A stretch of DNA of 51,595 nucleotides, from IMG/VR virus record IMGVR_UViG_2711768017_000018, one strand, 5' to 3'. Below, piece by piece: positions 3,001 through 6,000 of the stretch (positions within the stretch are counted from its first letter, which is position 1; every line of letters starts with the position of its first letter). The position numbers were made by a program. The DNA comes from a virus (taxonomy: Duplodnaviria > Heunggongvirae > Uroviricota > Caudoviricetes).

Positions 3001-6000
3001 ATTCAGCTAAAACTTTTGTTCAGGAGACTCTGAAAGATACCTGGGAGTCTGCTGACGAGTGGTTTGTTCATTAAGTTCATCATCTCTGGACACCATTCAC
3101 TTGTATTGACTTTAAGATCATTAAATTGTAATAATTCAAAGGGATGGGGCAGGTTTTTCCTCTTGCGCATGCAAGGGCGGCTCTGATAATGAACAGTAAT
3201 ATTTTACTGTTGAGCTTATGCTCACTGATCCTGCCGGGCAGGATGTTCAACGGTTCCAATATATCCTGCCCCTTCCGCTTTTAAAAAGGATCTTTTATGC
3301 ATGACAATATTTGGTTTACATATAAAGCACGTATCCAAGCGCACCATCGACTAGAATGGCTTGAAAAACACTCTCAATTTATCCTCGTTTGGTATGCTAT
3401 ATTGAGTGCGGTACTTTCAATTGTAACGTTGCGATTTCCAAAGGTTCTAGGAGATAATACAGATGTCGTTGCGGCGATACTTTCAGTGGCTCTACTGGGT
3501 ATTTCTCTGATCGTATCTAACCTAGATTTTCGTGGTCGAGCAATAGCCATGAGAAGGAATTATATTGCACTACAGCGACTCTATTTTGACATTACCACCA
3601 GTCAACAGTTATCTCTTGAACAGAAAGAAAAATATTTTAATTTGCTCAATGAGGTTGAGAATCACCGTGACATAGATGATAAAATTTCAAGGGTAACTCA
3701 AGTTGGACTTAAGACGAGGATCCCCACACAAAAAGAAAAAATAATTGTTATTTTATGGATATTACTTCGAATATTTATTACTGCCGCACTTTATATACTC
3801 CCATTAATATATCTTTGGATTGACTATGACTGCAAGCAGAATTTTTAAAAAGTCATTCTCGAAAAAAAATCTTCTAAAAGTATACTCTGAAAAAATCAAA
3901 GAATCAGGAGCGATTGGCATAGATCGGATTCGCCCATCAAAACTTGATTTGACAATAAAAAATGAGATCACTTTCATTTTTGAAAAGGTTAATTCTGGCA
4001 ATTACAAATTTACAGCATATAAAGAAAAATTAATATCTAAAGGCGCTAACTCTACACCCAGACAGATTTCCATACCAACTGCTAGGGACAGAATTACTCT
4101 TAGAGCTCTCTGTGAATGCCTTACGGAAATATATCCTAAGTCCAGATTAAAACTACCACATACAGTAATTGACTCATTGAAAGAAGCATTAAACAACAGT
4201 CTATATGCTGAATATGCAAAAATAGATCTTAAAAGTTTCTATCCTTCAATTGAACATAAATTGATAATTAATGCAATAAAAAATAAAATTAGAAAAAAAG
4301 AAATTAGACAGTTAATAACATCATCATTAATCGTGCCTACTGTAAGTGGAACCACAGGAAGCAAAGGTATCCCTAATAATACCAGAGGAGTACCTCAGGG
4401 ATTAGCGATATCAAACATTTTAGCTGAAATATCACTATCTAATTTCGATGATGAAATCAATAAAATGCATGACATATGGTACATGCGATACGTTGATGAC
4501 ATTCTTATTTTAACACCAAAATATCAAGCAACAAAAATAGCTTCTCATATCATTGATAAGCTTCAATCATTAAATTTAAACCCACATCCATTAAATGAAG
4601 AGAACTCAAAATCCAAAGTAGGCAGCTTGGATGAAAGTTTCAACTTTTTGGGCTACCACATAAAAAATCGAGAATTATTGATAAAACATGAGAGCATTCT
4701 TAGATTTGAGTCATCCTTAGCAAAAATTTTTACTGCATATAGACACGCTCTACTACAAGCTAAAAATAAGCGCGATAAAGAACGAGCTGTTGCATATTGT
4801 CAGTGGAAACTAAATCTTAGAATTACGGGATGTGTGTTTGAAGGTAAACGATTGGGATGGGTATCGTACTTCTCACAAATAACGTCAACAGCTCAACTTC
4901 GAGCTGTTAATCATACGATCAATAATCTTATCCGCCGATTCGGCCTTTCATCAGAAATAAAACCAAAGTCTTTGATTAAAACTTTCTATGAACTCCGCAG
5001 GGGTAGAGCGGAGACTTTTAAATACATACCTAACTTTGACAATCTACATATATCTCAGAAACGAGAAATTGTTTCTATGTGGATAGGGAAAGAGAATGAA
5101 AAAAAACTTAGCAATAGTGAAATAGAGAGAAAATTTAAATTTAAAATTGCGAAATCAGTAAAAGAGCTTGAAGAGGACATTTCAGGGATATCATAGATAT
5201 GTAATCCATTAAATCCTTTATATATAAAGCAATAAACACACTATTTAAATTCACAAATCAGCCGCAGTATCCTGCCATGACAAGTTGCTGCGGCATATCA
5301 CAAAACGATTACTCCATAACAGGGACCGCAGGCCACTCAATATCAGGTGCAGTTGATGTATCAACACGGTTCAGCAACACCCGATACTTCTTCCAGGCTT
5401 CCAGCAACGAGTTTTCTTCCTCCGTTGCGATCTCCAGATCTACAGCATCCTGAAGTGGCGCTATATGCTCACTGGCTACCTGCATCAGGCTGTTTTTTGT
5501 TTCTTCCGCCTCCCGGATCCGGAACAGTTTTTCTGCTTCCGTATCCTTCACCCAGGCTGTGCCGTTCCACTTCTGAAACTCCCCTTCCGGGGATAACCAG
5601 GTAACATTTTCCGGTAACGGACCGAGTTCAGAAATAAATAACGCGTCCCCTGACGCTACGTCATAAACCGTTTTACCCCGATGGTCTTCAACGAGATGCC
5701 ACGATGCCTCATCACTGTTGAAAACAGCCACAAAGCCAGCCGGAATATCTGGCGGTGCAATATAGGTACTGTTTGCTGGCAGACCTGTATGAGGCGGAAT
5801 ATATGCGTCACCTTCACCAATAAATTCATTAGTTCCGGTCAGCAGATTATAAATTTTTATGGTCCGTGGTTGTTCACTCATTCTGAATGCCATTATGCAA
5901 GCCTCACAATATAGTTAAATGCGATGTTTTTGACGGTGTTTTCCGCGTTACCCGCAGCGTTAACGGTGATGGTATGTCCATGTGAACCAATCGCAACGGA

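Follow-up and report, generated by a model that had tools for sequence, protein, structure and literature searches.

Reverse transcriptases (RTs) of the UG17 group belong to class 2 of the UG/Abi RTs and were reported as 'strongly associated' with SLATT proteins and as predicted defence genes (Mestre et al. 2022, PMC9226505). The corresponding system, DRT10, comprises a noncoding RNA (ncRNA) located upstream of a SLATT gene, the SLATT gene and the RT (10.1101/2025.10.16.682844; 10.64898/2026.04.29.721553). A SLATT gene placed upstream of the RT, with the two genes overlapping, is the predominant published UG17 arrangement, and the ncRNAs are clade-specific. The Eco_3_DRT10 system has a 137-nucleotide (nt) ncRNA, from which a complementary DNA (cDNA) repeat 5'-GAATCATTG-3' is copied at CAAUGAUUC followed by a second CAAU, with U110, C116, A117 and U119 named as residues of this region; its RT has 456 aa and primes from Ser456 (10.1101/2025.10.16.682844). 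RT-dependent tandem-repeat cDNA has been shown for Eco_3 and eight other homologues (Tang et al., 10.1101/2025.10.16.682844), and defence needing the RT active site, SLATT and the ncRNA has been shown for three E. coli systems including Eco_3 (10.1101/2025.10.16.682844) and for E3659 (10.64898/2026.04.29.721553). Here we describe a locus in a 51,595-nt stretch of a Caudoviricetes record (IMG/VR record IMGVR_UViG_2711768017_000018; the whole stretch is referred to as the window). In our view, window positions 3106-5196 hold an anti-phage system of the DRT10 family (UG17, class 2 UG/Abi) that is complete and belongs to the Eco_3_DRT10 type; it is cargo of a lambdoid prophage at dusA and lies towards the integrase end. 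We put the probability of this reading at about 0.93.

All of the DRT10 parts are present and intact at the sequence level: a promoter, an ncRNA of ~137 nt, a SLATT_5 protein and an overlapping 456-aa RT. They are located as follows.

3106-3135, plus strand: DRT10 ncRNA promoter, sigma-70 type (TTGACT, 18-nt spacer, AATAAT, with an upstream TG giving an extended -10)
3142-3278, plus strand: DRT10 ncRNA, ~137 nt, from covariance model, covariation and fold stability
3297-3848, plus strand: SLATT_5 membrane effector gene, 183 aa, from PADLOC, Pfam and NCBIfam profiles
3826-5196, plus strand: UG17 (DRT10) reverse transcriptase, 456 aa from ATG, with an in-frame TTG at 3820
4489-4500, plus strand: YVDD catalytic motif, RT residues 222-225
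5191-5193, plus strand: codon of Ser456, the C-terminal priming serine and last RT residue

A first-pass annotation of the window had reported two overlapping AT-rich genes of unassigned family here, a membrane protein followed by an RT, and had suggested that they might be an undescribed variant. The genes themselves were correctly placed at 3297-3848 (plus strand, 183 aa) and 3820-5196 (plus strand, 458 aa from the TTG) and their G+C content is indeed low. The range given for the module, 3297-5196, thus took in both open reading frames (ORFs) but omitted the third component, namely the ncRNA and its promoter, and the two-gene picture lacked a gene without which the system does not work. RefSeq, in identical loci, takes the ATG at 3826 as the RT start codon; the protein then has 456 aa, and its gene overlaps that of SLATT by 23 nt.

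The assignment of the RT is carried by profile searches, which had been proposed as a check. The protein matches the PADLOC model RT_UG17 with 526.6 bits (E 1.1e-158) over model positions 1-429 of 429, whereas the second-best PADLOC RT model, Drt3a, gives 130 bits; UG17 scores ~400 bits above any other RT class. DRT3 (UG3 + UG8) was rejected on this score and on the presence of one RT gene in place of two, Drt3a and Drt3b. Pfam RVT_1 covers RT residues 74-281 (E 7e-21), leaving ~175 C-terminal residues beyond it, and the five RT motifs quoted in the first-pass annotation are all present in the translation. Residues Tyr222, Val223, Asp224, Asp225 and Ser456 do not vary among 22 relatives, the most distant of which is 59% identical, and both the RT length of 456 aa and Ser456 are those published for the Eco_3 RT. 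RT and SLATT proteins listed as UG17 loci in Table S1 of Tang et al. (e.g. WP_077903186.1) match those of the window, with few substitutions, over the part of the sequence shown there. The family is therefore neither unassigned nor undescribed: the UG17-SLATT combination has been on record since 2022, its characterisation as DRT10 followed in 2025-26, the dataset of Tang et al. includes near-identical proteins, and the window copy is ~98% identical to the laboratory-characterised E. coli version.

The 183-aa upstream protein matches PADLOC RTasSLATT (E 1.5e-56), Pfam SLATT_5 (100.1 bits, cut-off 29.5) and NCBIfam SLATT_5 (136 bits, cut-off 60), which places it among the RT-associated SLATT proteins. 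Hydropathy gives three hydrophobic segments, at residues 25-52, 54-79 and 146-177, in agreement with the two N-terminal transmembrane helices and C-terminal hydrophobic helix noted earlier. In almost every related locus the gene immediately upstream of the RT encodes a SLATT homologue; the loci were anchored with tblastn, as ORF calling from ATG was inadequate for the many copies with other start codons. The first-pass annotation was right in likening the pair to UG/Abi-type anti-phage systems, in which the RT works together with a small membrane effector. That the membrane gene precedes the RT had been regarded as an oddity, but SLATT-then-RT with an overlap is the usual order in UG17 loci. 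A PDB sequence search with the SLATT protein gave no match, and no SLATT_5 structure is solved.

Three other RT-containing elements could be considered for this pair of genes. An RT beside a small membrane protein superficially resembles a retron, in which an RT and an msr-msd RNA are combined with a two-transmembrane (2TM) effector; some sources label homologues 'retron-type reverse transcriptase', and PADLOC 2TM-effector models gave weak matches (E 1e-4). However, the RT reaches 58 bits with NCBIfam retron_St85_RT, whose cut-off is 235, far from the UG17 result given above, and the RNA is found upstream of SLATT and not beside the RT, with a closed multi-hairpin fold instead of an msr-msd. 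No retron RNA family was returned by the Rfam scans described below and no suitable flanking inverted repeats were found; a retron was rejected and we attach almost no weight to it. A group II intron or group-II-like RT, or a diversity-generating retroelement (DGR), is brought to mind by the nearest solved structures in sequence and fold, which include GsI-IIC, G2L4 and one DGR RT, and by a TIGR04416 match at residues 16-374. These structural matches have 14-25% identity and reflect the common RT fold. A group II intron was rejected, with TIGR04416 at 144 bits against a cut-off of 300 and GIIM at 14.8 against a cut-off of 23, and the Rfam scans of the locus and of the window reported no group II intron RNA family around the RT. 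A DGR was likewise rejected: comparison of the window with itself by BLAST gave no repeats involving 2766-5320, and a repeat search yielded short AT-rich matches only. We regard this pair of explanations as exceedingly improbable. The first-pass annotation had named group II introns and DGRs beforehand as the elements to be distinguished; the evidence goes against both, as it does against a retron, and we retain UG17.

The AlphaFold2 model of the RT has a predicted local distance difference test (pLDDT) value of 84.5 and a predicted template-modelling score (pTM) of 0.77. Foldseek superposes it with the G2L4, GsI-IIC and SenDRT9 RTs over ~420-480 columns with template-modelling (TM) scores of 0.55-0.64 at 16-20% identity. 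The first-pass annotation had noted a C-terminal extension of roughly the observed size with no recognisable second catalytic domain. The ~175 residues past RVT_1 are there, but they need not be left unexplained: since the model aligns nearly full length with these known RTs, the C-terminal region is, as modelled, the helical thumb-like part common to the G2L4, GsI-IIC and SenDRT9 RTs and not a cryptic second domain. A search of the PDB by sequence found no solved DRT10 RT structure.

The 222-nt region between the DinI-like gene and SLATT contains the ncRNA, whose elements are listed here.

3143-3153 with 3265-3275, plus strand: closing stem P1, conserved fold
3158-3180, 3192-3211, 3212-3223 and 3228-3244, plus strand: four internal hairpins, conserved fold
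3245-3264, plus strand: single-stranded template loop, 3' of the last hairpin
3248-3260, plus strand: predicted A-B-A' template, with A CAA(C) at 3248-3251, B GGUUC and A' CAA(U) at 3257-3260

The ends of the RNA were placed by homology and by the published 137-nt Eco_3 RNA. Its minimum free energy is -57.1 kcal/mol (z = -4.35), with none of 200 shuffled sequences as stable. For comparison, we assembled 44 loci with relatives of the RT, one genome per species, anchored them at the SLATT N-terminus and aligned the regions upstream. The RNA is recognisable in Xenorhabdus, Photorhabdus, Buttiauxella, many Pseudomonas, Stutzerimonas, Stenotrophomonas, Bordetella and one metagenome-assembled genome. 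From the 23 distinct sequences RNAalifold derives a closing stem that encloses four hairpins and one single-stranded loop; of the 35 pairs, 18 show compensatory double changes. Under this structure 97.0% of the alignment cells are paired, compared with 48-54% when the partners are slid by 1-3 columns, and the covariation score of 0.349 (0.210 in shuffled alignments) was reached in none of 500 shuffles. A covariance model built from 19 sequences, none of them from E. coli or Xenorhabdus, has a single match on both strands of the 51.6-kb window, at 3142-3278, full length, with 110.4 bits and E 7e-26; it also recovers the E. coli and Xenorhabdus copies. The model has no match in phage mEp460, nor any upstream of distant alphaproteobacterial UG17 RTs (31-34% identity), for which it is uninformative; the missing alphaproteobacterial matches fit the published clade-specific ncRNAs.

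The promoter has 10 of 12 consensus matches in addition to the TG, and it is the sole such site on the plus strand between DinI and SLATT. A strict extended -10 expression missed most of the relatives and was replaced by a scored positional count, according to which a -10-like hexamer ends 6-7 nt 5' of the aligned RNA start in 24 of 31 related loci, with any other offset accounting for at most eight. The ncRNA is predicted to be expressed. RefSeq annotates nothing over the ncRNA, and Rfam, used in an E-value scan of the locus and a gathering-threshold scan of the whole window, holds no family for it, Rfam 15 being without a DRT10 model; the matches that were returned (IS009, C4, isrK and a chance bantam match) are unrelated to the ncRNA.

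With the RNA start at 3142, CAAC-GGUUC-CAAU falls at nt 107-119, which is the published Eco_3 register: the template there is CAAU-GAUUC-CAAU, and the window has CAA-CGGUUC-CAA in the same register. Taken with a 3-nt A, the latter occupies 3248-3259 and begins 3 nt past the hairpin at 3228-3244. The template loop, GUUCAACGGUUCCAAUAUAU, contains no U tract. Copying of A-B (3248-3256) would give a repeat of 5'-GAACCGTTG-3', and we predict that the window allele makes (GAACCGTTG)n. (U)CAA occupies the A and A' alignment positions in most of the 23 relatives, while B varies in sequence and length, giving units of 9-11 nt; it is on this positional conservation, and not on the presence of an A-B-A', that the template assignment is based. 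Published mutagenesis showed that A tolerates a mismatch at its fourth base, that B can vary freely and that homology of three bases generally suffices (10.1101/2025.10.16.682844), and for these reasons the window template is expected to work. A few relatives, the Pseudomonas loci L007 and L012/L013, lack the usual (U)CAA...(U)CAA; L007 reads GUUCACACUUUCUCUAAUCUC and L012 has no repeat of at least 3 nt. Copying there may follow a different register or rely on 2 nt of homology, as has been reported for Eco_1 and Eco_2.

Of the described systems, Eco_3_DRT10 is the closest. Both are from E. coli, with an ncRNA, a SLATT gene and an overlapping RT of 456 aa that has Ser456 and YVDD, and both have a 137-nt RNA with a closing stem, four hairpins and a loop. 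The E. coli allele L002 (NZ_CP062203) carries exactly CAATGATTCCAAT at the template, that is, the published Eco_3 template plus A'. Compared with L002, the window differs at four of the 222 intergenic nucleotides: 3141, 3166 (in a stem, G-C to G-U) and 3251 and 3253 (both in the template). The proteins differ at 10 of 456 RT residues and 4 of 183 SLATT residues, and are 97.8% identical in both cases. Owing to the template register, Ser456 and YVDD and the near-identity to L002, we read the window as a natural allele of an Eco_3-type system. In terms of the Eco_3 RNA the window has U110C and A112G, so that the repeat is GAACCGTTG in place of GAATCATTG and three instead of four Watson-Crick bases join A to A'; a competing 8-nt register is stronger in the window allele.

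The template alleles were counted in 5,426 complete E. coli genomes over the 61 nt that run from the last hairpin through the template loop into the closing strand. The exact window form is found in 81 copies, the L001 type, which also reads CAACGG, in ~72, and the Eco_3 allele in 34; the window template is therefore the majority form in E. coli and the laboratory-tested Eco_3 template is in the minority. The same allele occurs in Xenorhabdus, and CAACGG occurs in many Pseudomonas relatives. The template allele does not follow SLATT divergence: L002 has the SLATT nearest to that of the window, identical at 179 of 183 residues, and another template, while SLATT proteins identical at 163/183 and 170/183 share the template of the window; this fits the published tolerance of altered product sequences. 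What is new here is minor: the window allele is the commoner one in E. coli, a window-type (CAACGGUUC) template is not among the variants confirmed as tested, and the loop contains two competing registers.

By analogy with the ~98%-identical homologue, the RT of the window would bind the ncRNA and use the hydroxyl group of its Ser456 as the primer for DNA synthesis. Copying of the short template, which follows directly 3' of the last hairpin, would proceed up to a halt at the 5' boundary of the template, the nascent cDNA end would re-anneal on the downstream A' (CAA), and repeated cycling would give long, protein-linked, single-stranded tandem repeats. The repeat cDNA may then control the SLATT pore-forming protein, a step that is speculative in the literature as well as here. 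In the model that we favour for the Eco_3 clade, constitutive cDNA restrains a toxic SLATT; a drop or perturbation of the cDNA at infection would free SLATT, and the cell would be killed or arrested before phage release. Such abortive infection would protect the lysogen population and with it the prophage. Restraint is favoured because in Eco_3, the closest relative, cDNA abundance falls on infection; second-strand product there is barely detectable (10.1101/2025.10.16.682844).

A number of points weigh against the reading as we have given it. The equation of L002-type loci with Eco_3 is no more than probable: it relies on the match in template string, in coordinates and in RT length, and not on an accession. 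An A-B-A' of at least 3 nt is found in 66-92% of shuffled loops, so that its presence alone is not significant. The A-A' homology of the window amounts to 3 Watson-Crick bases only, which is the published lower limit, the fourth position being a dG:rU wobble (C110 compared with U119). An overlapping register, GUUC-AACG-GUUC (3245-3256), offers 4-nt homology and an 8-nt unit and could give an 8-nt repeat or imprecise products. Phage defence by the window module is put forward on the strength of ~98% identity, the locus being known from its sequence. Finally, cDNA rises on infection in another UG17-A homologue, for which activation by accumulation was proposed (10.64898/2026.04.29.721553), and the direction of the effector step, which both papers leave undecided, is speculative.

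The second register would make the product of the same DRT10 system an 8-nt repeat (5'-CGTTGAAC-3')n, or a mixture, instead of the 9-nt repeat. The two single-nucleotide differences from Eco_3 take one nucleotide from the canonical A-A' homology (4 to 3 nt) and add one to that of the alternative (3 to 4 nt), and in Eco_1 cryptic re-annealing sites lower repeat precision (Tang et al., 10.1101/2025.10.16.682844). Its use, however, requires read-through 3 nt past the Eco_3 5' template boundary, where the last hairpin and the GAUGUU linker are conserved; the Eco_3 allele already holds a 3-nt UUC...UUC alternative and yet only the 9-mer is reported, and in most relatives the (U)CAA register alone is present. 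We consider the 8-nt product unlikely and prefer the 9-nt repeat. It is equally doubtful that the window allele, the commonest natural one in E. coli, behaves unlike the laboratory allele and gives a different or mixed repeat. If it did, natural polymorphism of the template could adjust how precise the product is or where the set-point of SLATT control lies, or could help in evading phage counter-measures. On this reading, the occurrence of the allele in Xenorhabdus and of CAACGG in Pseudomonas relatives suggests that the window template is ancestral and that the studied Eco_3 allele arose from it.

The opposite effector logic deserves more weight. As proposed by Sanchez-Nieto et al., SLATT would be idle at rest and activated by a build-up of cDNA, with SbcB keeping cDNA low and a phage SSB-like protein tipping the balance. 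In E3659 UG17-A cDNA goes up on infection, SbcB suppresses toxicity and the phage SSB-like protein is needed for activation (10.64898/2026.04.29.721553); in E. coli H120, the host of a UG17-B system, sbcB becomes essential. These observations come from other clades, with an RT of ~445 aa, 7-nt repeats and a different ncRNA, or with UG17-B in a P4-like satellite, whereas in Eco_3, ~98% identical to the window, the cDNA fell and a second strand was hardly seen. Activation by accumulation is accordingly a substantial possibility, perhaps one chance in three, though restraint by cDNA is the logic that we adopt for the window. The sbcB-essentiality system of H120, being of a different subtype, was not used as direct evidence.

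It might also be supposed that the module is an intact-looking but silent or decaying prophage remnant, given that it is known from sequence, that some E. coli copies adjoin a frameshifted DinI gene and that the surrounding prophage region has runs of N and a possibly rearranged tail-fibre region. Both ORFs are nevertheless full length with every catalytic and priming residue kept, and the ncRNA retains all of its helices and a strong promoter. The substitutions between E. coli alleles spare pairing, as at 3166, where G-C becomes G-U, and three diverged alleles are all intact. A dead remnant is thus very unlikely, and we treat the locus as a complete DRT10.

Like the window, E3659 UG17-A (Escherichia sp., 10.64898/2026.04.29.721553) has a UG17 RT, a SLATT_5 protein and an upstream ncRNA, with SLATT before the RT and overlapping it, in the Pseudomonadota; tandem-repeat cDNA and the need for all three parts in defence have been shown in E3659. 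It differs in belonging to another clade, with an RT of ~445 aa, an ncRNA of ~143 nt that has another sequence, and 7-nt repeats, and the published probe has no counterpart in the window. The rise of cDNA on infection and the dependence on SbcB and a phage SSB-like trigger are features of E3659. E. coli H120 also has a UG17 RT and SLATT on a mobile element, but its system is UG17-B and lies in a P4-like satellite hotspot between psu and integrase, whereas the window has SLATT then RT in a lambdoid slot between DinI and tail fibre.

DRT9 (UG28 RT and ncRNA; 9nlx, 9nlv, 9vku) is, like DRT10, a class 2 UG/Abi system in which a protein-primed RT makes repetitive cDNA on an ncRNA template, and its ncRNA architecture is similar to that of DRT10 (Tang et al., 10.1101/2025.10.16.682844). 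SenDRT9 is among the best structural matches to the RT model (TM 0.55-0.61, E ~1e-11). As an assignment for the window DRT9 was rejected: the Drt9 hidden Markov model gives 69 bits against 527 for UG17, and there is no poly-U template. DRT9 makes poly-dA from poly-U and primes from internal tyrosines in a hexamer, whereas the window loop lacks a U tract and its system has SLATT as an obligate effector. Telomerase, made up of TERT and an RNA, resembles the published DRT10 mechanism in that a short internal template is recopied, realignment takes place on a repeated flank and a stem sets the boundary, and the window has sequence features that match. It differs in that the DRT10 RT is protein-primed, has no TEN or TRBD and, at 456 aa, compares with 1,132 aa for human TERT, and in that DRT10 has an antiviral role without extension of chromosome ends. 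No TERT chain is among the best 50 Foldseek matches listed for the RT model; an evolutionary link between DRT10 and telomerase is a claim of the DRT10 authors.

The module is situated among the following features.

542-1579, minus strand: dusA, neighbour of the prophage insertion
1668-2765, plus strand: tyrosine integrase gene (Pfam Phage_integrase)
2826-3074, plus strand: DinI-like gene (Pfam DinI)
3075-5308, no strand assigned: AT-rich cargo insert from the DinI stop codon to the 3' end of the tail-fibre assembly gene, G+C 0.345, containing the ~2.2-kb module
5309-9297, minus strand: tail-fibre assembly and tail-fibre genes, the downstream neighbours

The slot between the DinI-like gene and the tail-fibre genes is as the first-pass annotation had it. 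The G+C content is 0.36 in the SLATT gene and 0.33 in the RT gene, compared with 0.43-0.53 in the flanks. In the window and in identical genomes (e.g. strain 6409, RefSeq) the order is dusA, integrase, DinI, ncRNA-SLATT-RT, tail fibre and a lambdoid structural module, and exact copies of the window locus (100% identity) are present in many E. coli genomes. The match to sequenced lambdoid phages breaks off precisely at position 3074, the end of the DinI stop codon, and phage mEp460 has int, DinI, 298 bp and tail fibre, with no module. Within the E. coli survey set the module is found in 188 genomes, always chromosomal and in three sequence types, while the flanks are found in 1,929. The view that the module is swappable cargo is borne out by the near-empty slot of mEp460 and by these counts. 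That view had been argued from the unrelated sequence beside a second tail-fibre block; the second block does exist, but it is weak evidence for a swap, as 230 N separate the copies and the junction is in no complete genome. It is the gene order in mEp460 and the breakpoint at the DinI stop codon, and not the second copy in the window, that support the reading.

In three other strains (L001-L003; NZ_CP054940, NZ_CP062203 and NZ_CP095795) DinI, ncRNA, SLATT, RT and tail fibre are found beside prfC, and an integrase is missing from that end; DinI is frameshifted in one of these copies, and in one strain a capsid fragment separates two DinI genes. Because the same arrangement recurs at prfC, the module travels with the DinI/tail-fibre end of different lambdoid prophages: it is cargo of one fixed slot, DinI to tail fibre, in lambdoid prophages at no fewer than two sites, dusA and prfC. 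Searches of a phage collection of 50,697 genomes gave no DRT10-like RT by tblastn (E <= 1e-20) and no record with the module by DNA comparison. It may be that the prophages carrying the module are seldom induced or seldom sequenced; alternatively, they may be defective. As a discovery the locus adds little, and its practical value lies in annotation. The RefSeq product names are only 'SLATT domain-containing protein' and 'reverse transcriptase domain-containing protein', with no system name; with such generic labels, an unannotated ncRNA and no Rfam 15 model, 188 complete E. coli genomes carry an unlabelled DRT10.

A 34-nt direct repeat of 71% identity flanks the SLATT-RT coding block exactly, with one copy (3296-3329) at the SLATT start codon and the other (5198-5231) just past the RT stop codon; their last 15 nt agree at 14 positions and read TTTA[C/T]ATATAAAGCA. 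It is probably a chance occurrence in AT-rich DNA, but could be a scar of module exchange.

The block of tail-fibre assembly, tail-fibre, Lom and J-end sequences is duplicated in the window (5331-10700 and 11605-16848, 91-96% identity). The junction region 9300-12400 is contiguous in none of the 5,426 complete E. coli genomes, the best coverage being 71%. Tandem or adjacent prophages, a strain-specific duplication and a scaffolding artefact are each possible. There are five runs of N of 70-238 bases, at 10730-10959, 12363-12600, 14220-14446, 17226-17347 and 36692-36761, which are either assembly gaps at repeats or masked stretches. The first of these (230 N) lies exactly between the two tail-fibre blocks, which makes their adjacency uncertain.

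Region 10960-11585 is AT-rich and occupies, beside the second tail-fibre assembly gene, the slot equivalent to that of the DRT10 cargo. It is present in 831 of the 5,426 E. coli genomes, in which only the tail-fibre assembly gene at its end is annotated. Within it, a very short ORF at ~11220-11320 encodes a hydrophobic peptide (MKIQSKLIVLLNIIIAFILFELLAQKFGLSTLF), and a hairpin resembling a terminator comes after it, near 11474-11500; this could represent small membrane peptide or toxin cargo. Two full-length Rfam IS009 matches, at 5352-5550 and 11626-11824 (both minus strand; 225 and 218 bits, gathering threshold 117), lie inside the tail-fibre assembly genes. In the far part of the prophage, Rfam matches to C4 antisense RNA (45013-45100, minus strand, 82 bits) and to the Hfq-binding RNA isrK (45125-45201, minus strand, 64 bits) are found side by side.

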